Shown: piece after piece, positions 1,358-12,445 of the stretch
How positions within the stretch are numbered: the stretch's first letter is position 1
Layout of the letters: each line of letters starts with the position of its first letter
NCBI GenBank assembly: GCA_963781335.1
Contig: CAWAFS010000031.1
Span: forward strand, 54,059 to 118,058
Source: an uncultured Actinomycetota bacterium
Lineage (GTDB): Bacteria > Actinomycetota > Actinomycetes > Propionibacteriales > Nocardioidaceae
Reading direction: 5' to 3'
Length of the DNA: 64,000 bases
Notes under the pieces: model-generated
The model's input: only the letters and a program-made list of their open reading frames with translations
Database searches by the model: none
What the model was told of the DNA's origin: nothing
Program-made: the position numbers and the translations under genes

Positions 1358-2481
1358 TCGGTCCGCCTCACGTCGCGCAGCAGGTCGACCGCCGCCTCGC
1401 TCAGCGTCACCGGTGTGACCGTGCCGGTGAGCAGGAAGCTGGCTTCGTCGCCCTGCACCAGCCGGACCGAGATCGGCCCGACCTCGAGGGAGACGCTCGA
1501 GCCGGACGCCACGGCATCGCGGCTCCGCGCGAGCTGGTCGTGCAGACGTCCGGCCAGGGACCGTCGCAGGGGCACGGCGAGGACGGCCGTGGGTCCCCGG
1601 CCGTAGACCCCCACGGCCCCGAAGTCCTCAGGACGTCCCAGTCGGGGAAGGTCCGCGATGCTGTCAGGCACCTCGAGGGGTGCGAACGCATTGGCGCCCG
1701 CCGCGTCGTCCAGGGCCACGCCGCGTGAGAAGTCGAGGGTGGGAGCCAGCTGTAGGTCCGTGCGGCTCGGCGCCGGCTCCCCGAGGCTGACCCGGGTGAC
1801 CCGCGTGTCCAGGATCGGCACGCCGCCCACCGTGGCGTCGTACACCTTGACCCGGAGGGGCAGGCCGGACTCGAGGTCTGCCCACACGTCGACGCGCGTG
1901 ATGGTGGAGCGTTCGTCATTCGGCGTCAGTCTCAGACCGGCGGCGTCACGCCCGGCCTCACGCCGCGAGGGCAGGCGGGAGAGCTCCTCGGGAGTGGCGC
2001 CGGCGAGCAGGCGTGCCGCGAGCTCGGACGGGACCACGTCCACGTCGTCAGGCAGCCTGATCGGGGAGTACGGCGTGAAGTTGACCCGGTTCTCCTCGTA
2101 GTTCCAGCGCACCGTCAGACCGCCGTTGCGCACGAGGTCGGACTCACCGGTGGTGCGCAGCCGGTCGATTCGCCAGTCGTCGCGGTCGCGCCACCACACG
2201 CGCAGCTGGGTCTCCTCGCCCAGCAGCCGCGAGACGCCGCCGAAGGTCGCGCCGCTGAGCGGGACCTGGAGCGACCCCTGCGAGCGGACCTCGCCGGACC
2301 ACCCCCCGTCGGCTGCGTCGATCCGTTCGGCCAGCCGTACGGCGCTGATGTTCGTCTCCTGGGCGGGCAGGGCACGAAGGACGAGCGGGGCCGAGGCCAC
2401 CCCTGCCGCGACCGTCGCCACCACCAGCCAGCGCGCCCCGGGGACCATGCCGCCACGGTACGACGCGACCGAAGCAGGCAT
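1354..2481 (-). CDS. exported/membrane-anchored hypothetical protein, first gene of the ABC operon
   Basis: 375-aa ORF with N-terminal hydrophobic helix ([18 protein letters not shown]). 4-nt overlap with the ATPase gene. No catalytic motif recognised. Confidence 0.6.
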
Positions 2482-2540
2482 CCTGTTCCGGCAGCGCTAG
2501 GGTCGGGCCCGGGCACGACGAGACCAGGAAGTTGTCGGAG

Positions 2541-5033
2541 ATGAGCGAGCAGGACCAGAGCGAGACCGTGGGCTACGACGTGCACGCCACCGAGGCCAAG
2601 TGGCTGCCGGTGTGGGATGAGCTCGACCCGTTCCGAGCCGACGACGACAGCCCGCGCGAGAAGCGCTACGCGCTGACGATGTTTCCCTACCCGAGCGGTG
2701 ACCTGCACATGGGTCACGCCGAGGTGACCGCGCTCCACGACGTGATCGCGCGCTACTGGTGGCAGCGCGGCTTCGAGGTGCTCAACCCGATCGGGTGGGA
2801 CTCCTTCGGCCTGCCGGCGGAGAACGCAGCGATCCAGCGCAACGAGCACCCGGCGACCTACACCTACGCCAACATCGAGACCCAGGCCGCGTCCTTCCGC
2901 AAGTACGGCATCAGCTTCGACTGGTCGCGTCGGCTGCACACCTCCGACCCGGAGTACTACCGCTGGACGCAGTGGCTGTTCCTGAAGCTGCGGGAGCGGG
3001 GCCTGGCCTACCGCAAGTCCAGCCCGGTGAACTGGTGTCCCAACGACCAGACGGTGCTGGCCAACGAGCAGGTCGTCGACGGTTTCTGCGAGCGATGCGG
3101 GGCCGAGGTGACCAAGCGCGAGCTGACGCAGTGGTACTTCAAGGTGACCGACTACGCCCAGCGGCTGCTCGACGACATGGACGACCTGAACTGGCCCGAG
3201 CGGGTGCTGACGCTGCAGCGCAACTGGATCGGTCGCTCGGAGGGTGCCCACGTCGACTTCGAGGTCACCACCGAAGGCACGGACCAGACCCGGACGATCA
3301 GTGTCTACACCACCCGCCCGGACACGCTGTTCGGCGCGACGTTCATGGTGGTGGCCGCCGACGCGAAGCTGGCCGAGGAGATCGTCTCCTCCGAGCAGCG
3401 GTCGGCCTACGACGACTACCTGAACCAGACCCGGATGGCCTCCGACATCGACCGGCTGACGACCGACCGCCCCAAGACCGGGGTGTTCCTCGGCGCGTGG
3501 GCGGTCAACCCCGTGAACGGGCAGAAGGTGCCGGTGTGGGCGGCGGACTACGTGCTGGCCGACTACGGCACCGGCGCGATCATGGCCGTCCCCGGGCAGG
3601 ACCAGCGCGACTGGGACTTCGCGGAGAAGTTCGAACTCCCGATCGTCCGCACCGTGCAACCGTCCGAGGCCTTCGAGGCCGGCGGCGGCAAGGCGTTCAC
3701 CGGCAACGGCCCGGCCATCAACTCCGCGAACGACACCGTCTCCCTCGACGGCCTGGACATCGACGACGCCAAGCAGACGATCATCGGCTACCTCGAGGAG
3801 CAGGGGAGCGGTCGCGGCGCGGTGAACTACCGGCTGCGTGACTGGCTGCTGTCCCGCCAGCGCTTCTGGGGCTGCCCCATCCCGATAGTGCACTGTCCGG
3901 AGTGCGGCGAGGTGGACGTGCCGGAGGACGAACTGCCGGTCGTACTGCCAGAGCTCAGGGGTGCCGACCTCAAACCGAAGGGTGTCTCACCCCTGGCAGC
4001 GGCCGAGGACTGGGTGAACGTGGACTGCCCGAGGTGTGGCGGACCCGCCAAGCGCGACTCCGACACGATGGACACCTTCGTGGACTCGTCGTGGTACTAC
4101 CTGCGCTACTGCTCACCCCACGACGACACCCAGGCGTTCGACCCCGACAAGGTGAACCTGTGGATGCCGGCCGAGCAGTACGTCGGTGGCGTCGAGCACG
4201 CGGTCCTGCACCTGCTCTACAGCCGGTTCTTCACCAAGGCACTGCACGACATGGGGCTGATCGACTTCGAGGAGCCCTTCTCGGCGCTGTTGAACCAGGG
4301 CGTCGTGATCAACCAGGGCAAGAAGATGAGCAAGTCGCTGGGCAACGGCGTCGACCTCGGTCAGCAGCTCGCGGAGTACGGCGTGGACGCGGTGCGGCTG
4401 ACCCTGGTGTTCGCCGGACCTCCCGAGGACAACATTGACTGGGCCGACATGTCACCCGCCGGCTCGCTGCGATTCCTGCAGCGTGCCTGGCGCCTCTCCG
4501 GCGACGTCACCTCGGCGCCGGGCACCTCGCCGGTCGACGGCGATGTCGCGCTGCGCAGGGTGACCCATCGGACGCTGCGCGAGACCGAGACGCTGCTCGA
4601 CTCGCACCGGTTCAACGTGATGGTCGCCCGGATGATGGAGCTCGTGAACGCCACCCGCAAGGCGATCGACTCAGGGCCAGGTCCCCAGGATCCGGCGGTG
4701 CGGGAGGCGACCGAGGCGGTGGCGATCCTGCTCTCGCTCGTCGCGCCGTACACCGCCGAGGAGATGTGGTTCCGGCTGGGTCACGAGCCCACCGTGGCCC
4801 GGGCGGGCTGGCCCGTGGTCGACGAAGCCCTGCTGGTCGAGGACTCCGTCACCGCGGTCGTGCAGGTGCAGGGGAAGCTTCGGGCCAGGCTGGAGGTCTC
4901 GCCCGACATCAGCGACGCCGACCTCGAGGCGGCGGCCCTGGCCGACGAGTCGGTGCAGCGTGCCCTGGAGGGCCAGCAGGTGCGCAAGGTGATCGTGCGG
5001 GCACCCAAGCTGGTCAACGTCGTCGTCGGCTGA
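2541..5033 (+). CDS. leuS: leucine--tRNA ligase
   Basis: Class I signatures HMGH (GDLHMGH) and KMSKS, CP1 editing region, about 830 aa. ATG at 2541 preferred over the TTG at 2532 used by the track. Confidence 0.97.
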
Positions 5034-5064
5034 TGAGTCGACTTCCCGGGATGCGGAGAATTCA

Positions 5065-5084
5065 TGCCGCGTTCCGCTCGGTCG
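5065..5084 (+). repeat. 20-bp direct repeat TGCCGCGTTCCGCTCGGTCG, left copy
   Basis: Identical 20-mer at 7839..7858. Sits about 30 nt after the leuS stop. Confidence 0.9.
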
Positions 5085-5104
5085 ATGTGCGGACGCGCCC
5101 CGAC

Positions 5105-5494
5105 CTACTCGGTTTCCTGCACGACGCCGGCCGCTACTTGCGCGGCAAGTCGATCCACCCTGACTCGGGCCTCGTCGGCGCCCACTACTTCTTCTTCGAC
5201 GAGAAGCGTCTCGCCGTCCTCGTCGCAACGCCAGACCTCGAGGTACCAGATCGGAGGACCAGAGTGCCGCCGTTCCCCGCGCTCATAGCCCTTCCTGAGT
5301 AAGCGGTTGGCACGCCAGAGCATGAGCCTGGCCAGCCGCCCATCGCCAGCATCAGGCCTGAGCATCGGCCAGTCTGGGGGACCTGGCACCTCTGCGCTGA
5401 TCTGGTTGACCCGTCCGGCAGGGTCGGTTGCCCATCGCACGATCTGCACGTCGTTGGTGAGGTCCTCGCCCTCCGGGAGATCGTCGATATCCAC
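5105..5494 (-). CDS. hypothetical protein (islet)
   Basis: 129-aa ORF. GC3 clearly lower than in core genes. No family recognised. Confidence 0.5.
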   Translation of the reverse strand: MDIDDLPEGEDLTNDVQIVRWATDPAGRVNQISAEVPGPPDWPMLRPDAGDGRLARLMLWRANRLLRKGYERGERRHSGPPIWYLEVWRCDEDGETLLVEEEVVGADEARVRVDRLAAQVAAGVVQETE

Positions 5495-5590
5495 GCAGTC
5501 GATGATGCAGTACCGAAGTTGCTCTTGGTCAGTAAAGCCCGAAGTCCAACGTCCGCTTCTGCCGCCGATCCGCGCTTCCAGTGGGTTTGT

Positions 5591-5938
5591 TCAGTCCGCT
5601 ATCGGCATCGACAGCAGGATCAGGAACAGGCCGCACCAGATCCCGGTCACGAGCCCAAGGGCCGCAACAACCCCCGCCGTTCCGTCCAGCGGGCCGTCCT
5701 CCGGTGCGGGACGCTGCCTAATGGACACAAATCCCAGAGCGCTCAACGCTACAAACGCGAAGGGCGCCACGAAGGTCGCCAAGAAGTCAGCAGCCTCACC
5801 GAGACTGGACCGTATCGGTCCGGCAAGGACGAAGTGGGACCAGAAGGCGAGCAGCAGCACGGCTTGCAAGCAGGTCACAAGAACAACGGCGCGCGCGGGC
5901 CAACCCGAGATAGTCCTCTTGCCGCTCGCTATCGACAC
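5591..5938 (-). CDS. hypothetical membrane protein (islet)
   Basis: 115 aa with three hydrophobic helices (VVLVTCLQAVLLLAFW, FVAPFAFVALSALGFV, AALGLVTGIWCGLFLILL). Confidence 0.5.
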   Translation of the reverse strand: MSIASGKRTISGWPARAVVLVTCLQAVLLLAFWSHFVLAGPIRSSLGEAADFLATFVAPFAFVALSALGFVSIRQRPAPEDGPLDGTAGVVAALGLVTGIWCGLFLILLSMPIAD

Positions 5939-6053
5939 TCTCGAACGATCCCACAGGACTGCGGTGGTCGCTGGCCTATTCGGGCTCGCTGGTGAGCCTC
6001 TTCACCACCCTTTCCCTAACGCACTGACATGCCGCATAGTGCGCGCCTGCGGG

Positions 6054-6371
6054 TCATTCGAGAAGGGGTAGCTCGAGGTCATAGGCCAAGACCACGGCGC
6101 GCCCCAGTTGGGCCTCTTGTTCGGCGCTGAGGTATCCGACGGTGCGACCGAGCTGGTTCACCGGGACGGTGATGACGTTGTCGAGGGCGACCACGCAGTC
6201 GTGATCCAGCCCGTTGCCGGGTCCGACCAGGACCTCGCTGGACAAGCCCTTGATGGTGGTGGTGATGGGAGCGACCGTCACCTTCGTCATCGCAGCCCGC
6301 GCCGCCTCACGGGTCAAGATCAATGCCGGCCGGGTCTCGTCGAGACGCACCACGCAGATCTCGCGCACCAA
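6054..6371 (-). CDS. mazF: type II toxin, MazF/PemK-family endoribonuclease
   Basis: VREICVVRLDETRPALILT...APITTTIKGLSSEV is the typical MazF/PemK layout. TTG (6371) or GTG (6368) start immediately after the antitoxin stop. Confidence 0.8.
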   Translation of the reverse strand: MVREICVVRLDETRPALILTREAARAAMTKVTVAPITTTIKGLSSEVLVGPGNGLDHDCVVALDNVITVPVNQLGRTVGYLSAEQEAQLGRAVVLAYDLELPLLE

Positions 6372-6605
6372 TCAGTCCTCGACCTCGAGGTGGGTGCTGC
6401 TCCAATTCACCAGATCGTCCAGGTCGTCGGCGGGGCCGTGCTCACGCAGGACTTGGGCGTCTTGCTCGGCGGCCTGTCGACGCATTTCCCGCTCCACCGC
6501 GGCCGCGACGAGCGCAGCCCGGCTGGGGGCCAGGCCGGTGGCCACGGTGCGGTCCAGGAAGGCCACCATCTCGTCGGGGAGGCGAACGGCGATCTGAGTG
6601 CTCAT
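6372..6605 (-). CDS. type II antitoxin (ribbon-helix-helix, MazE-like)
   Basis: MSTQIAVRLPDEMVAFLDRTV is an RHH N-terminus, with an acidic C-terminus. Abuts mazF. Start taken at ATG 6605; alternatives are 6614 and 6629. Confidence 0.75.
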   Translation of the reverse strand: MSTQIAVRLPDEMVAFLDRTVATGLAPSRAALVAAAVEREMRRQAAEQDAQVLREHGPADDLDDLVNWSSTHLEVED

Positions 6606-6625
6606 GGGACCCATTGTTACCCGAC

Positions 6626-6644
6626 GCATCCCACTTTGGGATGC
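6626..6644. promoter_or_regulatory. palindrome GCATCCCA-ctt-TGGGATGC upstream of the mazEF operon (candidate operator)
   Basis: Perfect 8-bp arms about 20 nt upstream of the antitoxin start. Confidence 0.4.
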
Positions 6645-6980
6645 GCACTCGCATGCCGCTGATGGTGCCCGGAACTGCCGAGATCCGGTAGACGCTCAGC
6701 GGGGCTATGCACGTGATCTTTCGGACATACCGTGGCCTGTCGTCGACCACGACGCCCGAAGGACGATCAGTTCGAGGTCGCACGCGCGGTGTCCCCGCGC
6801 GCGCGGAACCCTCGCGGCCCGACCTGATCGTCCTTGTGGCGCCGCCCGGCGTCCGCAGCGGCCTTGGAAGGAGGCAGTTCGGGGAAGTGACCCGTCGCTC
6901 AGGCGGGAACAGGCATATGGCTGCCGCGAACTGCCTCCCTCTGATGCGCGGAGCCACGAGAACGGTCGATCGCACGCTTC

Positions 6981-7000
6981 TGCCGCTGTCGGTGCGTAGC
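6981..7000 (+). repeat. 20-bp direct repeat TGCCGCTGTCGGTGCGTAGC, left copy
   Basis: Identical 20-mer at 7550..7569. The pair brackets only the GNAT gene. Confidence 0.9.
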
Positions 7001-7067
7001 TTGCCGATGAGCGGTCGTCGTGGGTGAGCCATTTCAAGACGCTGATGGCCATGGCAAGGTCGTTCGA

Positions 7068-7543
7068 ATGGACGTAGCGATCCGGCCAGTCGAGGCAACC
7101 GACCACGAGGACGTGATGCGCTTGGCACCGCGACTGCTCGTCGGGGTGGACCCTTCCAGGCCGACCGATCTGGTACGCACGGCCATCCAGGACTGGGTGG
7201 ATGAGTCAGTGAAGTCCGCGGGCAGCGACGGCCAGGCCGGATGGGTCGCCGACACGACGGCTCCGTCATCGGGTTCGTCTCTGTGTCAGCAGAGGATCAC
7301 TGGTGCGGAGTGACGGATGCCTGGGTCGGGGAGATGATGGTGGAGGAGCGGTTCGAGAGGAAGGGCGTCGCCCGGTCGCTGATCGGTAAGGCCGAGGAGT
7401 GGGCAGCTCAACGGGGTCTCCGACACATTCGTCTGACGACAGGGGCCGCCAACCACGGAGCACGAGCCTTCTACGAGCGGCTCGGCTACAGACTGAACGA
7501 GGTCACCCTGACAAAGGAACTCCTCACCCAGCCGAGCGCCTGA
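7068..7543 (+). pseudogene. GNAT family N-acetyltransferase, frameshifted
   Basis: N-terminal half in the frame of ORF 7020..7313 (MDVAIRPVEATDHEDV...GQAGWVA). C-terminal half with acetyl-CoA motif (ERFERKGVARSLIGKAEEWAAQRG...FYERLGY) in ORF 7241..7543. Frames join near 7250-7260 if one base is restored. Confidence 0.8.
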
Positions 7544-7549
7544 CGCTCA

Positions 7550-7569
7550 TGCCGCTGTCGGTGCGTAGC
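7550..7569 (+). repeat. 20-bp direct repeat TGCCGCTGTCGGTGCGTAGC, right copy
   Basis: Identical to 6981..7000. Starts 7 nt after the GNAT stop. Confidence 0.9.
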
Positions 7570-7643
7570 GTCCGTCCGCAGATCGCGCGCGGTCCTGCCG
7601 CGAAGAGCGTCGGAGGCGGCGCTCTGGATGTAGCGTCGCAAGC

Positions 7644-7814
7644 ATGACCGCTGGCTCCCTCTTCAATGGCTTTGCGTTGCTCCTCGTCCTACTGATCATC
7701 GCTGGAGTGGCCGGCGGCATTGGATCAGTCGAGTTGCTCATCTGGCTCGCGCTCGTCACAGCCTGGATCGCGTGGTGGATGGTGAGTCGACGCAGGAGCG
7801 ACCCTGCCCCCTGA
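7644..7814 (+). CDS. small membrane protein, 56 aa (below the ORF-track cutoff)
   Basis: Own translation: MTAGSLFNGFALLLVLLIIAGVAGGIGSVELLIWLALVTAWIAWWMVSRRRSDPAP. Two hydrophobic helices plus a basic tail. Confidence 0.35.
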   Translation: MTAGSLFNGFALLLVLLIIAGVAGGIGSVELLIWLALVTAWIAWWMVSRRRSDPAP

Positions 7815-7838
7815 CACGGGCTGGCGAACGTCCGCAAC

Positions 7839-7858
7839 TGCCGCGTTCCGCTCGGTCG
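7839..7858 (+). repeat. 20-bp direct repeat TGCCGCGTTCCGCTCGGTCG, right copy
   Basis: Identical to 5065..5084. Followed directly by TGCCGAGATC, which also occurs at 6676. Confidence 0.9.
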
Positions 7859-7882
7859 TGCCGAGATCAGTGCAGGGGTCTA

Positions 7883-8478
7883 TTACTTCGGGGGTGTTTC
7901 GAGGGCCTGCCTGACGAGGGCGTCGACCATCCATTGTTGGAGGGCGCTGACTTCTGCGGGGGCGAGGCCAGCGACGTCGCTCAGCCAGACGCGGGTCTCG
8001 ATGCCACATGCGGCGCGGAATGCCAGCGCAAGCCGGCGGACGCCCTCTTCGCCGATCGACTCGGCCATTGGCTCGAGCGCCTCGATGAACCACGGAATGG
8101 CGCGGCCCTGGCGGAGCGGCAGCTCGTGCGGCACTTCTCCCAGCGAGAGGCGCAGCATCGCACGTTGCTGCGGCTCATTCTCCTGCACGCGGCTGATGAC
8201 GAACCCGGCAACGGCGGCCACGCGTTCGTCCACGGCTTCCGGCGGCGGGTCGGGAAGGGCGGACGCGGCTCCTGTCTCCGGGTATGCCGCGGCGAGAAGT
8301 CGGCCTGTGAGGTGAAGTAGCGGTAGGCGGTGGGGCGAGAGATCCCGGCAGCCTCCGCGACCTGCTCGACACGGGGGGTGTCGCCCGCGGTGATCAGCTC
8401 GCGCGCCGCAGCGATCAGTTGGTCGCGGGTGCGTTGCTTCTGCCGCGTGCGACCCGACTCGATGTAGTCCGTTGACAT
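7883..8478 (-). pseudogene. TetR/AcrR family transcriptional regulator, frameshifted
   Basis: HTH half (RDQLIAAARELI...VEQVAEAAGISRPTAYRYFTSQ) in ORF 7981..8478. Ligand-domain half (LLAAAYPETG...WMVDALVRQALETPPK) in ORF 7883..8488. Frames join near 8300. Confidence 0.8.
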
Positions 8479-8531
8479 GGTCGTTCATGATATGCCATTC
8501 TCATTACAAGACTCAAGTCTCATGAATGACC
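8479..8531. promoter_or_regulatory. divergent TetR/cupin promoter region with 12-bp inverted repeat (candidate TetR operator)
   Basis: GGTCGTTCATGA (8479..8490) and TCATGAATGACC (8520..8531) match at 11 of 12 positions as an inverted repeat. AT-rich spacer. Confidence 0.45.
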
Positions 8532-8541
8532 GGAGTGTCAG

Positions 8542-9012
8542 ATGACTGAAAGGACGATGCTCGCGCCGGTGATCCGACGAGCAGGCGAGGGCGAGAAGCG
8601 ATGGTTCTTCGGCGGTGGCGTTTTCACCTGGAAGCTCAGCAGTGCTAACGAGGACATCGGCCTGTGGGAGGTCGACATGGTCGAGGGCAAGTGGACCCCG
8701 ATCCACACCCACCCGGTCTCGGAGTCCATGTGGGTGCTCGAGGGGCAAATCCAGTACCGCGTCAACGACGATGAACACGAACTCGGTGCCGGCGACTTCG
8801 TCATGGTGCCCGCAGGCGTACCCCACGCCTTCATCGTCAAGAGTTCCACGGCCAAGGTGCTCGGCATCCAGCCAACATGCGAGTTCGAACCCTTCTACCT
8901 CGGCGCCAGCGAGCCGTTCGAAGGGTCGGCCTGCATCGTCGACTTCGCCAGGATCGCGCAGAGCGCTCAAGAGAACGGCGGCATCGAGATCGTCGGACCC
9001 CCACCCTTCTAG
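8542..9012 (+). CDS. cupin domain protein
   Basis: Cupin motifs PIHTHPVSESMWVLEG and GDFVMVPAGVPHAF. Divergent from the TetR gene. Confidence 0.8.
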   Translation: MTERTMLAPVIRRAGEGEKRWFFGGGVFTWKLSSANEDIGLWEVDMVEGKWTPIHTHPVSESMWVLEGQIQYRVNDDEHELGAGDFVMVPAGVPHAFIVKSSTAKVLGIQPTCEFEPFYLGASEPFEGSACIVDFARIAQSAQENGGIEIVGPPPF

Positions 9013-9171
9013 AGGAGGGCGCACTCACCTGCCGCGTTGGGGACGGCTAAGCTCGCCGGGATCTGCCGCGGCCCACGCGCTCCAAGCAGGCATCGTCGTA
9101 CAACCTTCGACGCCATGACGAGCATTTTCGATGGCTACGTTGCCAGCGGTCGCTGATGGGACACTGCGCAG

Positions 9172-9804
9172 GTGCACCGAATGTCTCGCTCACATGCGCT
9201 CACCACCGTCGCATTCGGTACGCCGGCACTTGCCCTGGCCGTGGCCGGGTTGTTCCACCCGCACCGCCTCGGTTACGACTCGGCGCAGCGCTGGTTCCTT
9301 CTGCACATCGCCGGCCTGGTCGCCTTTCCTCTCGCCGGGGTGGCGCTGACCGCACTCATGGGCCGCCGGCGGGACGTCCTCGCGTGGGCGGCGCGGGTCG
9401 CGGCCTACCTCTATGCGACGTTCTACACCGCGCTGGACGTGGTCAGCGGGATCGCGGCGGGATACCTCACCCGCGAGCTCGGACCGGGCACACCTAGGCC
9501 CGACGAGGTCCGCCTGCTGTTCCGAATCGGCACCCCGCTCGGTGAGATCGGCTCGTGGGCGCTCCTTGTCTGCTGCGCACTCATCGCGGCCGACCAGTTG
9601 CATCGCCACGGGCTGGCCGCCCTTCCCGGGCTGCTGCTCGTGCCGGGTGCCTGGCTGGTGCACGTCGATCACATCTTCGCGCCCACGGGTGCAGCCGGCA
9701 TGGCCCTGATCGGCTTCGCAACGGCCTGGCTGGCTGCGCTCGCGACCAAGCCACCAGCGCGCCTGTCGCCGGACGAGACCACGTGGTCGGGAATCGCGTC
9801 ATAG
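9172..9804 (+). CDS. hypothetical integral membrane protein
   Basis: 210 aa with about six hydrophobic segments. GTG 9172 or ATG 9181 start. Confidence 0.55.
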   Translation: MHRMSRSHALTTVAFGTPALALAVAGLFHPHRLGYDSAQRWFLLHIAGLVAFPLAGVALTALMGRRRDVLAWAARVAAYLYATFYTALDVVSGIAAGYLTRELGPGTPRPDEVRLLFRIGTPLGEIGSWALLVCCALIAADQLHRHGLAALPGLLLVPGAWLVHVDHIFAPTGAAGMALIGFATAWLAALATKPPARLSPDETTWSGIAS

Positions 9805-9840
9805 CAGGGAAGTCGCGAGGCAGGGAAGTCGCGAGGCAGG
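9804..9840. repeat. 16-bp tandem duplication GCAGGGAAGTCGCGAG x2 plus a partial third unit
   Basis: Read directly. Begins at the last base of the stop codon of the 9172..9804 ORF. Confidence 0.85.
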
Positions 9841-9982
9841 CAAGCCTGCACGAACGGGTGACAGGTTGGGTCACGCAGCCTGAGTGGCTGTCCTCGCCGG
9901 TGCCGTGACAGCCCGCGAGTTCCTCCTCACCCACGTGGATCCTGAACTTCCCGAACACCTGCCATCGTGCAGCAAGGGGACG

Positions 9983-11290
9983 TTAGGCGGCGTCGTCGAG
10001 CAGTCGTCTGATCCGTTGCTCGATGCTCATGACGGGTGGGTCGCCAGGCTGTGGGGGAGGGCTGGATCGGTAGCGATGTCCCGTGGGCGTGGTGATCTCG
10101 ACGCGATGTCGGTCGGAGGTGACGAGGTCGGTGCGCCAGCCTGGGGTCTCCTTGATGTAGTTGCAGGATTCGCAGAGGCCCTGGCCGTTCGCGGCGGTCG
10201 TTGGTCCACCGTCGCTGGCTCGGCGGATGTGGTCGACGTGGGCGATGGGGGCGTCGCACCAAGGGGTGCGGCAGGTCTGGTCGCGGAGCACGAGCAGTCG
10301 GCGGAGCGTGCCGCGGAAGGTGCGGCGCTGGCTGTCCATTGCGACGAGCTCGCCAGTGGTGGGGGCGGTGAAGAGCCGGTGGATCCAGGCCCGGTCGGCG
10401 TCGCGGACGATCCGGCGGGCCAGGAACCCCGGGATGGTGCCGTAGCCCGAGACGTAGGCAGGTTCGTGGTCGCCACGGAGCAGCGTGCGCTCGTTCATCA
10501 CGAGCTGGACCTCGACGCCACCGACGGCGGACTGCTGCCCAGTGAGGCGGGTGTAGAAGCTGTCGGCCATGATCTGGCTGAGGGTGCGCGTGTCGCCCTC
10601 CGCGCGCAGAGTCTTGGCGTGCCGGCGCAAGGCGGCGTAGACGGCGACTCCTTGCGCGACTGGCAACAGGCCGGTGACGTTGGTCATCGTGTCGGGTGCA
10701 GGTCGGATGGTGACGCGTCGGTCGGTCTCGGCCTTCTGGTTGCGGCGCAGCGCTGCCCCGGGGTCGAGGCGGTAGGCGATCGTGCGTGCGAGGTCAGCGA
10801 CCCGTCGGTCTCCGGCGCCGACGAGCTGGGGCGCGAGCTCGGCGTCGACCTGCCTCCGGTCCTCGCGGGTCAGGGTCGCGGTCTCGCGAACGATCAGGGT
10901 CGCGCGCCACTCGGAGATCTTGCCGTGCGTCAGTCCCTCGAGGGTGTGCGGCAGGTCGCGGACCAGGCCGAGCGCGAGACCGAGGTGCTGCTGGCCTCGG
11001 GCCGGTGACTCGCGTCGAGCAAGTGCGACCTGGGCGGCGATGCCGCGCGAGACCTCACTTGTCGACTTCAAGGAGGGTGCTGCGTCGCGCTGGGAGCGGT
11101 CGAAGGCCTCGGTGATCCTGGCCTGCGCAGCGGCGGCAGCGGCCTTGAGCGACTCCAGCTCCCCGATCCGGTCGATGCGCTCGCGGTCGCTCAGATCATG
11201 CCCGTCGTGCCGCGCCAGCGACTCGATCCAGGCAGCCGGGTCCACCGGCAAGACGCCGGGGGAGTGGGGTTGCCGCAATGAATCGAACAT
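9983..11290 (-). CDS. DUF222 / HNH endonuclease (13E12-repeat-family-like protein)
   Basis: MFDSLRQ...IGELESLKAAAAAAQARITEAF is a DUF222-type N-terminus. C-terminal HNH region is RDQTCRTPWCDAPIAHVDHIRRASDGGPTTAANGQGLCESCNY. Start set at ATG 11290, because the track ORF extends upstream into ycaQ. Confidence 0.85.
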   Translation of the reverse strand: MFDSLRQPHSPGVLPVDPAAWIESLARHDGHDLSDRERIDRIGELESLKAAAAAAQARITEAFDRSQRDAAPSLKSTSEVSRGIAAQVALARRESPARGQQHLGLALGLVRDLPHTLEGLTHGKISEWRATLIVRETATLTREDRRQVDAELAPQLVGAGDRRVADLARTIAYRLDPGAALRRNQKAETDRRVTIRPAPDTMTNVTGLLPVAQGVAVYAALRRHAKTLRAEGDTRTLSQIMADSFYTRLTGQQSAVGGVEVQLVMNERTLLRGDHEPAYVSGYGTIPGFLARRIVRDADRAWIHRLFTAPTTGELVAMDSQRRTFRGTLRRLLVLRDQTCRTPWCDAPIAHVDHIRRASDGGPTTAANGQGLCESCNYIKETPGWRTDLVTSDRHRVEITTPTGHRYRSSPPPQPGDPPVMSIEQRIRRLLDDAA

Positions 11291-11401
11291 ACGTTCGAGT
11301 CTACCAAACCGGGAGAACACGTCAAGGGGAGGCGGGCAAATCTGTGGATCAATCCGACGAGCGACCTGCCGAGCGCATCGAGGGCCGTCTAACCTGCGTG
11401 G

Positions 11402-12445
11402 GTGCTCACCCTGCGCGACCGGAACCGCACGCTGCTGCGACGGCAACACCTGCTGGAGCGCACCACGATGTCGGCGCTGAGGATGGTCGAGCACCTCGTC
11501 GGCCTGCAGGCGCAGGAGAACCTGCCGCCCTACCTCTCGCTCGCGGCCCGGATCCAGGACTTCGACCCGCTCGAGCTGTCCGGGGCTCTCGAGAGCAAGG
11601 ACGCGGTTCGGTTCCTGACGATGCGAGGCACCATCCACGTGCTCGTACCTGACGATGCGTTGTCGTTGCGACCCTGGGTGCAGCACGCGCTCGACCAGCA
11701 GAGTGCCTCCAACCAGATGAGCCGCCCGGCGAAGTCCGTGCCGGTCGAAGACCTGGTCGCCGCGACCCGACGACTCCTCGAACCGGGTCCGCTGCCCGTC
11801 AAGGCGCTGGGTCAGCTGCTCGGGAAGGACTTCCCCGGCGTACCCGCCGGTGCGCTCGCGCACACGGCGCGTGAGCGGGTGCCGATGGTCCAGGTCCCGC
11901 CTCGAGGGCTGTGGAAGCGGTCTGGCGGCGTCGTCTACCAGACGGTCGAGAACTACCTCGGCCAGTCACAGAGCGAGGTCGACCTGCCCGAGCTCGTGCG
12001 CCGCTACCTGCGGGCGTTCGGACCTGGCACCGCTGCGGACATGACCGCGTGGTCTCGGGTGACCAGGCTCGGCCCGGTCTTCGAGTCGATGAGGGACGAG
12101 CTCGTGGTGGTGGAGTGCGAGGACGGCAGGCGGAGGTACGACGTGCCGGGTGCGCCGTACGCCGAGGGGGACACGCCCGCACCGGTCCGCCTGCTCGGCG
12201 CCTACGACAACGTGTGGCTCTCGCACTCAAGTCGTGAGCACATCGTCCCGCCCGACGTGGGCCCGCGGTGGATGGGCGCGAACGGTGGCGTCGGCAGCAC
12301 GATCTTCGTCGACGGCTTCATGGCCGGCCTGTGGTGGGTCCGCGACGGCCGCATCGTGACCGACGTCTTCAGAAGCCTGTCGACACGCGAGCAGGGCGAG
12401 CTGGACGCCGAGGTTGCCCGCGTCGACGCGCTGCTGTCCGGGTGA
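11402..12445 (+). CDS. winged-helix DNA-binding protein, YcaQ/DUF1006 family (DNA glycosylase-like)
   Basis: LRDRNRTLLRRQHLLERT...VEHLVGLQAQ...MRGTIHVL is the characteristic N-terminal pattern of this family. GTG start. Confidence 0.7.
   Translation: MLTLRDRNRTLLRRQHLLERTTMSALRMVEHLVGLQAQENLPPYLSLAARIQDFDPLELSGALESKDAVRFLTMRGTIHVLVPDDALSLRPWVQHALDQQSASNQMSRPAKSVPVEDLVAATRRLLEPGPLPVKALGQLLGKDFPGVPAGALAHTARERVPMVQVPPRGLWKRSGGVVYQTVENYLGQSQSEVDLPELVRRYLRAFGPGTAADMTAWSRVTRLGPVFESMRDELVVVECEDGRRRYDVPGAPYAEGDTPAPVRLLGAYDNVWLSHSSREHIVPPDVGPRWMGANGGVGSTIFVDGFMAGLWWVRDGRIVTDVFRSLSTREQGELDAEVARVDALLSG

Follow-up and report, generated by a model that had tools for sequence, protein, structure and literature searches.

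What assembles a run of small, unrelated genes next to a core gene, and why does one hexamer recur on a single strand at nearly every boundary between them? These questions are raised by a 64,000-nt stretch of DNA (the window) from an uncultured Actinomycetota bacterium of the Nocardioidaceae (contig CAWAFS010000031.1, positions 54,059 to 118,058), in which an islet of nine short genes follows leuS. The original prediction, made from the letters alone, had read the copies of TGCCGC in this islet as co-oriented recombination sites at cassette junctions. It had also offered an integron-like array, a cluster of attC sites lacking an integrase (CALIN), as one option. We conclude that the region from 5065 to ~9805 probably consists of some eight mobile gene cassettes in an array, which conservative site-specific recombination has put together at a short double-stranded site.

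Intergenic copies of TGCCGC lie on one strand

All 11 plus-strand copies that had been listed for the gaps between the genes (5065, 5560, 6030, 6654, 6922, 6981, 7550, 7596, 7839, 9030 and 9064) were found again. The gaps are also free of reverse copies, as had been claimed: all five of these (5142, 7714, 8116, 8128 and 8978) lie inside open reading frames (ORFs), together with four more plus-strand copies (5265, 5920, 8285 and 8441), which brings the total for 5001-10000 to 15 on the plus strand and 5 on the minus strand. By our own arithmetic, the ~1.2 kb of non-coding DNA that holds the 11 copies should contain about one at the window-wide frequency, and the raw count of 15 compares with 3.9 expected in 5 kb (p ~1e-5). 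Enrichment of this kind is unexceptional, as the top hexamers of other 5-kb bins reach the same p value, and models that take the flanks into account were thus used instead. What stands out is the intergenic placement of the copies together with their shared flanks. Such flanks had been reported as well; an exact 20-mer was recovered at 5065 and 7839, and positions 6974 and 7543 share a 27-mer at 93% identity. We considered a coding origin of the repeat as a repeated 5' gene fragment, several copies of which read M/L-P-x-S-A/V-R-S in one frame. This was dropped, since the distance to the second box described below is not divisible by three and the reading frame in question runs antisense to the real genes.

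The site is conserved in metagenomic contigs

A homolog of the 129-amino-acid (aa) protein of cassette 1, at 81% identity, is encoded on an assembly contig of 2.2 kb (L084), where the same motif stands at gene boundaries, on the same relative strand, beside different neighbour genes. The pattern AACGYMCKSNNMTGCCGCNNNGTG(0-2)CGCG, written from the L084 copies and then scanned over metagenomic contigs, matched 103 stretches, a few of which are coding coincidences in apparent ddl genes, as judged from the encoded peptide. Most of the 103 define a consensus, gAACG[T/C][C/A]C[G/T][C/G]nn[C/A]-TGCCGC-nnnGTGCGCGg, and the site is present in dozens of soil metagenome contigs. It comprises a left arm of ~12 bp, (g)AACG[T/C][C/A]C[G/T][C/G]nn[C/A], the non-palindromic 6-bp core TGCCGC and the right arm nnnGTGCGCGg. 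The core is often followed by a second TGCCG[A/C] box 20-45 nt downstream; over a range of 14-65 nt, such a box was found in 13 of 57 sites, compared to 3-4 in controls. It resembles the core, lies within the right arm and accounts for the phasing of the window copies: the reported spacing stood, and it arises from two boxes that belong to one site.

We then asked how well the window fits this family, using a weight matrix built from the external, metagenomic sites only. On the plus strand, the copies at 6030, 7839, 6981 and 9030 scored from 35.5 down to 10.1 bits (Table 1), and no other match above 5 bits was found over the 64 kb on either strand. Applied to 1.56 Mb of leuS loci from related genomes, the same matrix gave 5 matches of at least 8 bits. 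A model made from the window's own 11 sites gave no match in the leuS loci of the relatives, nor in other parts of the window. The arms were also scored apart, with position-weight halves from the metagenomic sites and 100 other TGCCGC occurrences in the window as controls. The left arm outscored 100 of 100 controls at 7 of the 11 copies (5560, 6030, 6654, 6981, 7839, 9030 and 9064) and nearly all of them at 7596 (1/100) and 7550 (5/100). Copy 5065 shows a right arm only, which is what the outermost junction of an array should look like. The listed copy at 6922 and a TGCCAT variant at 9960, by contrast, have no arm support and are probably not sites.

Cassettes are shared between arrays, and breakpoints lie at the core

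A comparison of the interval from leuS to ycaQ among relatives had been proposed as a way of finding breakpoints. It was run on 80 genomes, where the cassettes proved to be absent within 10 kb of leuS; the comparison thus established their absence and was uninformative on breakpoints, which were taken from metagenomic contigs instead. Genes in these loci were called with a crude caller based on GC content at third codon positions (GC3).

Extra copies of the site in the metagenomic loci are co-oriented: 29 share the strand and 1 does not. For example, a 13.5-kb contig (L143) carries 7 co-oriented sites that bound modules of 1-4 genes, including a HigBA-like pair, an alpha/beta hydrolase and many hypotheticals. 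When cassette 1 of the window was compared with L084, the alignment began at ~+20 relative to the 5065 core and ended at -5 relative to the 5560 core, and the sequences were unrelated beyond both ends. Another cassette, encoding a 175-aa protein, was found at 89-93% identity in L090, L092, L133/L152 and L119 and is bounded by cores in each. At its right-hand core, these contexts agree on the left side, and they are unrelated directly after TGCCGC. Moreover, two segments that are joined at a site in L092 sit 3.9 kb apart in L133, with further cassettes between them. Overall, identity over the 40 nt on the inner side of the core was 82-100%, compared to 45-58% on the outer side; random 40-mers average 56%. 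The left arm thus moves with the left cassette and the right arm with the right cassette, which is the signature of conservative site-specific recombination in or near the hexamer. The view that co-oriented recombination sites mark the cassette junctions is in this way borne out by cassettes that recur elsewhere with breakpoints at the hexamer.

Other parts of the window array also have counterparts. The second box of junction 5, TGCCGATGAGCGG, matches that in L100, L105 and L138. The last unit, cassette 8, has a 92% homolog on L195, in which homology begins at about the 9030 core and continues through the 9064 box. Two ~1-kb contigs from two public sequencing runs (L082 and L083) are 99.6-99.9% identical to cassettes 1-2; they match window positions 5031-6080 and 5083-6070, respectively, and both stop near junctions 1 and 3. 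These ends could fit branching of the assembly graph at the sites, with variable neighbours in the population, or equally low coverage. Finally, sites with two GGATCTGCCGC boxes were seen in L154, L135, L122 and L110, the cores standing 34-46 nt apart around a GC hairpin, GCGCG-TCAG-CGCGC. These have the appearance of a direct fusion between a right arm and a left arm, in other words an empty cassette, and the 7550/7596 pair of the window looks similar.

The islet is foreign to the leuS locus

LeuS of the window is 73-91% identical at the protein level to its matches in the 80 genomes, which are of Marmoricola and Nocardioides type. In three of these relatives (L006, L007 and L072), a ycaQ/AlkZ-like gene starts 15-40 nt after leuS. 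Given the position of this gene in the window (Table 1), the two core genes are separated there by ~6.4 kb of added DNA. In the 80 relatives, the nine islet genes are all missing within 10 kb of leuS, and neither a comparable repeat nor TGCCGC-type sites were found in their leuS spacers. Moreover, the lower GC content and weaker GC3 that had been noted for the islet were confirmed (GC3 of 0.75-0.84 in islet genes, compared to 0.88-0.94 in flanking genes). The islet is foreign to the leuS locus, as seen from the missing genes in relatives and from GC3 values below those of the flanks.

A single TGCCGC was observed in the 40-nt leuS-ycaQ spacer of two relatives (L006:12501 and L007:12500), in the same orientation; its right flank is similar to the right arm only when a 2-nt deletion is assumed. 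Such a copy might be a solo site or an ancestral secondary site, for which this degree of resemblance is weak evidence. We also considered the repeats as an att duplication of the leuS end or the ycaQ start and rejected this, the similarity being unconvincing.

Table 1. Positions of the array units and of the flanking genes in the window.
Feature	Position	Strand	Description
leuS	2532..5033	+	Conserved left flank; 833-aa ORF
Junction 1	5065..5084	+	Core TGCCGC and right arm of cassette 1; on the left, leuS-proximal chromosomal DNA, no canonical left arm
Cassette 1	5085..5559	-	129-aa hypothetical gene (5105-5494); 82% nt homolog on L084
Junction 2	5546..5565	+	Left arm ccAACGTCCGCttc and core; left-arm score 16.8, above all 100 controls
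Cassette 2	5591..5938	-	115-aa membrane-like hypothetical; no Pfam match
Junction 3	6018..6046	+	Canonical full site AACGCACTGACA-TGCCGC-ATAGTGCGCG; 35.5 bits, best in the 64-kb window
Cassette 3	6054..6629	-	mazF-like toxin (6054-6371, PemK_toxin E 3.9e-11) and small upstream gene (6372-6629)
Junction 4	6642..6685	+	Core at 6654 and second box TGCCGAGATC at 6676
Cassette 4	6686..6968		No convincing ORF; holds unsupported copy 6922
Junction 5	6969..7015	+	CGCACgcttc-TGCCGC-tgtcGGTGCG and second box TGCCGATGAGCGG; 16.1 bits
Cassette 5	7068..7543	+	GNAT acetyltransferase, frameshifted; Acetyltransf_1 E 1.1e-18, 3' piece only
Junction 6	7538..7601	+	Cores at 7550 and 7596
Cassette 6	7644..7814	+	56-aa ORF
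Junction 7	7827..7868	+	GAACGTCCGCAAC-TGCCGC and second box TGCCGAGATC; 23.3 bits; left arm 16.1
Cassette 7	7883..9012		Disrupted TetR-family gene (-) and divergent cupin gene (8542-9012, +)
Junction 8	9018..9069	+	Core at 9030; 10.1 bits; second core-like box at 9064 is part of cassette 8
Cassette 8	9172..9804	+	210-aa membrane protein; right end of array unrecognisable
Right-edge debris	9804..9890		16-nt x2.6 tandem repeat (GCAGGGAAGTCGCGAG, 9804-9844) and solo IS3-family end (9846-9890)
DUF222/HNH gene	9983..11290	-	435 codons; adjoins the array, membership not shown
ycaQ/AlkZ-like	11402..12445	+	Conserved right flank; AlkZ-like domain E 1.9e-65

Cassette contents and right edge of the array

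In cassette 3, the small gene upstream of the mazF-like toxin gene had no Pfam match and is presumed to encode the antitoxin. Two genes had been called frameshifted, and both look disrupted: the GNAT gene of cassette 5 is split over two frames, and in cassette 7 the TetR_N domain (E 2.7e-07) is found on 7981-8478 only, the 5' piece of the TetR gene, which fits a frameshift. The cupin gene beside it matches Cupin_2 (E 2e-15). Exact-protein look-up returned no record of the cupin and mazF products, and a search of a plasmid collection returned only a distant mazEF match and the insertion sequence (IS) end at the right edge. This end, the 45 nt at 9846-9890, is 93% identical to IS3-family termini on Rhodococcus plasmids. 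The tandem repeat and the solo IS3 end mark the right edge of the array as rearranged.

The DUF222/HNH gene next to this edge was rejected as a member or enzyme of the array: in another locus (L014), a homolog adjoins ycaQ where TGCCGC-type sites are absent, and the gene is therefore not counted as part of the array. A longer, 626-aa HNH ORF (9983-11863, minus strand) is an artefact, its first ~160 codons being an open antisense frame over the ycaQ/AlkZ-like gene. A perfect palindrome, TCGAACATACGTTCGA, overlaps the start codon of the DUF222/HNH gene at 11283-11298; we take it to be of the actinobacterial LexA/SOS-box type (TCGAAC-N4-GTTCGA), which suggests that the gene may be induced by DNA damage.

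A Xer-like tyrosine recombinase is encoded beside the sites

A search for recombinases next to similar arrays had also been proposed. Pfam analysis of 144 large ORFs from the site loci brought up two recurring types, IS110-family transposases and three tyrosine recombinases, so that a Xer-like tyrosine recombinase does recur near sites elsewhere. The three proteins, from loci that were retrieved by the site (L095, L102 and L154), are ~308 aa long and share 68-74% identity; thousands of close relatives exist in metagenomes (80-88% identity), and a plasmid search returned only a 43% relative on one Pseudonocardia plasmid. Their best solved relative is XerD (1a0p, E 1.7e-18), and the catalytic motifs GLRIFE, HMLRHTF, RHAD and MRYDR appear intact on reading the sequences. 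The recombinase scored 101.6-102.5 bits with the XerC and XerD models, compared to cut-offs of 330-335. Its contexts are rich in mobile elements, with several copies per sample and variable small genes upstream that are mostly on the opposite strand. From these model scores and this genomic context, we rejected a housekeeping XerD. With the integron integrase model TIGR02249, the score was 41 bits, compared to a cut-off of 265, and covered residues 224-283 only. The site-associated recombinase thus fails the IntI model, against the IntI-type or CALIN reading of the array.

The association was then examined in the reverse direction, using six loci retrieved via four of the recombinase proteins. 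In six of six, a core lies ~60 nt upstream of the gene, as [variable left arm]-TGCCGC-GCCTGGCACGTTCC, and GAGACGTCCGGCAT-TGCCGA lies ~50 nt past the stop codon. Homology among these loci starts at the upstream core and stops at the downstream TGCCGA, and all model matches (14/14) are on the strand of the recombinase gene. Moreover, two contigs from one sample (L192 and L193), with different surroundings, contain a stretch of 1,042 nt that is 100% identical between them; it begins with the first base of the upstream core and runs to just beyond the downstream core. Thus, the recombinase gene itself forms a cassette of ~1,034 bp, which is presumably autonomous within the system, and its product is likely to be the enzyme.

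No tyrosine recombinase was found in the 64-kb window, nor any remnant of this family. Without a recombinase gene there, the array is an orphan, mobilisable only in trans. Signs of decay are two disrupted genes, one unit without an ORF, degenerate arms and IS debris at the right end. The islet is best described, from this analysis, as a partly decayed orphan array, the functional counterpart of a CALIN.

Further observations concern the genes next to the sites and the recombinase. IS110-family (DEDD) transposase genes were found ~60-160 nt from a site in both orientations (L135:1667-2623; L165, flipped, 2028-3320), a transposase fragment ~470 nt from a site (L137:1036-1671) and one gene ~4.7 kb away (L162:3-734). 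In L165, the sequence departs from related sites directly after GTGCGCGCG. IS1111-attC elements target attC, and by analogy the IS110-family elements may be insertion sequences that target the present site. Upstream of the recombinase gene at L193:8459-9385, to ~2785, lie six small genes, all on the opposite strand, which encode PNPOx, DinB_2, adenylate-kinase-like and TIR domain proteins and two hypotheticals. Large TIR/NACHT-WD40 genes adjoin recombinase copies in L191 and L194, and such arrays may often carry defence-type cargo.

The site is conserved in sequence and not in structure

Since attC sites recombine as folded strands, the folding check that had been suggested for the integron or CALIN option was run. 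We did not find a stable hairpin shared among individual sites, and fold z-scores were mostly non-significant. The consensus structure of 58 aligned sites reached -0.65 kcal/mol with no covariation, no Rfam family matched the site sequences, and no pair of R'' and R' boxes (RYYYAAC / GTTRRRY) was seen on reading them. The sites are thus conserved in sequence and not in structure, which fits a double-stranded core-type site and differs from attC. With no shared hairpin, the array is not a member of the integron/CALIN family.

Alternative explanations

A chance cluster of a GC-rich hexamer in non-coding DNA has one point in its favour, namely that the enrichment per bin is no stronger than that of the best hexamers of other 5-kb bins. 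Its probability is negligible, given the exact 20-mer and the 27-mer repeats, the agreement of an independent model and the occurrence of the same site in many unrelated contigs. It is also quite improbable that the repeat is itself mobile or amplifying, as a repetitive extragenic palindrome (REP), a miniature inverted-repeat transposable element (MITE) or an IS target would be, and sits in the gaps of an ordinary acquired island whose genes are not cassettes. The elements are indeed short (~35-60 nt) and intergenic, IS110-family transposases adjoin them in four loci, and transposases of this family are known to target repeated sites. However, the arms co-vary with the neighbouring module and homology switches at the core, whereas an inserted repeat would have continuous flanking homology. 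In addition, no copy of the site exists in the other 59 kb of the window, co-orientation is strict (29 to 1 and 14 to 0), and there is no palindromic structure. Unlike REP elements, their mosaic clusters (BIMEs) and MITEs, the present sites are unstructured and kept in a single orientation.

A classical integron remnant, whose repeats would be attC sites recombined by IntI as folded single strands, would explain a good deal: small, mostly single-gene cassettes in co-oriented arrays, many of unknown function and including a toxin-antitoxin pair, a GNAT gene and hypotheticals, with one recombination site per cassette, cassettes common to several arrays with breakpoints at the site, an association with a tyrosine recombinase, upstream genes that mostly point away from it, and orphan arrays with the integrase missing nearby, as in CALINs. 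We nevertheless regard it as very improbable. Of the features of integrons, we found the co-oriented array of exchangeable cassettes, but neither the attC structure with its R and L boxes, hairpin and covariation nor an IntI integrase: conservation is that of a double-stranded 6-bp-core site, the associated recombinase lies far below the integrase cut-off and its gene is itself a core-bounded cassette, and the cassette genes face both ways. A 2016 census also found complete integrons in none of the Actinobacteria genomes surveyed (PMC4889954).

The alternative that we regard as unlikely, though less so than the others, is that the modules are shuffled by the host XerC/XerD or by RecA acting on 30-bp repeats, with the recombinase cassette as a passenger. 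Such shuffling is familiar from the pdif modules of Acinetobacter and from IMEX elements, small modules that often carry toxin-antitoxin or resistance genes and are bounded by Xer-type sites with a 6-bp central region. The pdif modules occur on plasmids between inverted site pairs and use the host XerC/XerD; IMEX integrate singly at the chromosomal dif. A 6-bp core with conserved ~11-12-bp arms is the format of a Xer site, the dyad symmetry of the arms being weak by our own reading, the associated recombinase is Xer-like, and orphan arrays such as that of the window would need no dedicated enzyme. The site, however, is presumably unlike the dif consensus, and all sites are direct repeats rather than inverted pairs of pdif type. 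They are also chromosomal and follow leuS rather than lying at the terminus dif. Moreover, a dedicated Xer-like enzyme, far under the XerC/XerD cut-offs, travels with the sites, and its gene is bounded by cores and present in several copies per sample, as would an autonomous element using its own site. Exchange driven by RecA is at odds with the divergence of the arms and the sharpness of the breakpoints.

Several observations weigh against an array of site-specific cassettes, our preferred explanation. Junctions 6654, 7550, 7596 and 9064 fit the site model poorly and copy 6922 does not fit at all, and the array lacks a defined right-hand end. Of the window's own cassettes, only cassette 1, with its 129-aa gene, was found in another array. 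In the comparison with L084, both of its ends fall on cores, yet the flank identities are modest (65-68% compared to 45-52%), as the two copies are 18% diverged. Some homology ends at ~+56 to +61 or at -40 and thus off the core (L088/L127, L122/L144 and L097/L148), which may reflect the second box or other events. Finally, the link between the recombinase and the site is one of adjacency only, and IS110-family transposases likewise recur beside sites.

Discussion

If the islet is an array of mobile cassettes, its assembly could proceed as follows. The left arm of each junction would belong to the left-hand cassette and the right arm to the right-hand cassette, so that a cassette, once circularised, would carry one complete site of left arm, core and right arm. 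We infer that such a circular intermediate pairs with a resident site through the recombinase, which would catalyse strand exchange by cleavage within or next to the core. This would yield two hybrid sites and an array that is one unit longer, and recombination between two direct sites would excise the units between them. The core being asymmetric, the polarity of insertion would be fixed, and all copies would come to lie on one strand whatever the direction of the genes.

Other known systems share some of these features. The 1,034-bp unit is similar to the Cryptons of eukaryotes in that it consists of a recombinase gene only, has no inverted ends and appears to insert via a short core common to element and target. 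Unlike Cryptons, the present system is prokaryotic, and its site is common to many cargo cassettes that lack a recombinase and pile up into arrays. In tRNA-linked islands and tycheposons, repeated co-oriented sites likewise separate successive insertions beside a conserved gene. In contrast to these, no tRNA or tmRNA gene was found in the 64-kb window, and the units are single genes instead of multi-kilobase elements with their own integrases. The repeat also differs from that of serial att islands, since it is not a copy of the leuS end or the ycaQ start. We did not find a published description of such a cassette system in a literature search that was not exhaustive, and an earlier description is possible.

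A broader interpretation, to which we give even weight for and against, is that soil Actinomycetota carry a cassette system analogous to, but independent of, integrons. In such a system, a 1-kb Xer-like recombinase unit would mobilise in trans a pool of cargo without a recombinase (toxin-antitoxins, small enzymes, regulators and possibly defence genes) into co-oriented arrays at many chromosomal positions, and the leuS islet would be one orphan array among them. In textbooks, it is through integrons that bacteria gather and rearrange cassettes of single genes; if the broader interpretation is true, the genetics of cassette arrays evolved more than once. The site and the recombinase would then provide a sequence handle for mining accessory genes from soil metagenomes, and the compact 1-kb recombinase with its short site would be a candidate tool for high-GC Gram-positive hosts. 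For the actinobacteria themselves, such a system would explain the small islets beside core genes that vary gene by gene among their genomes.

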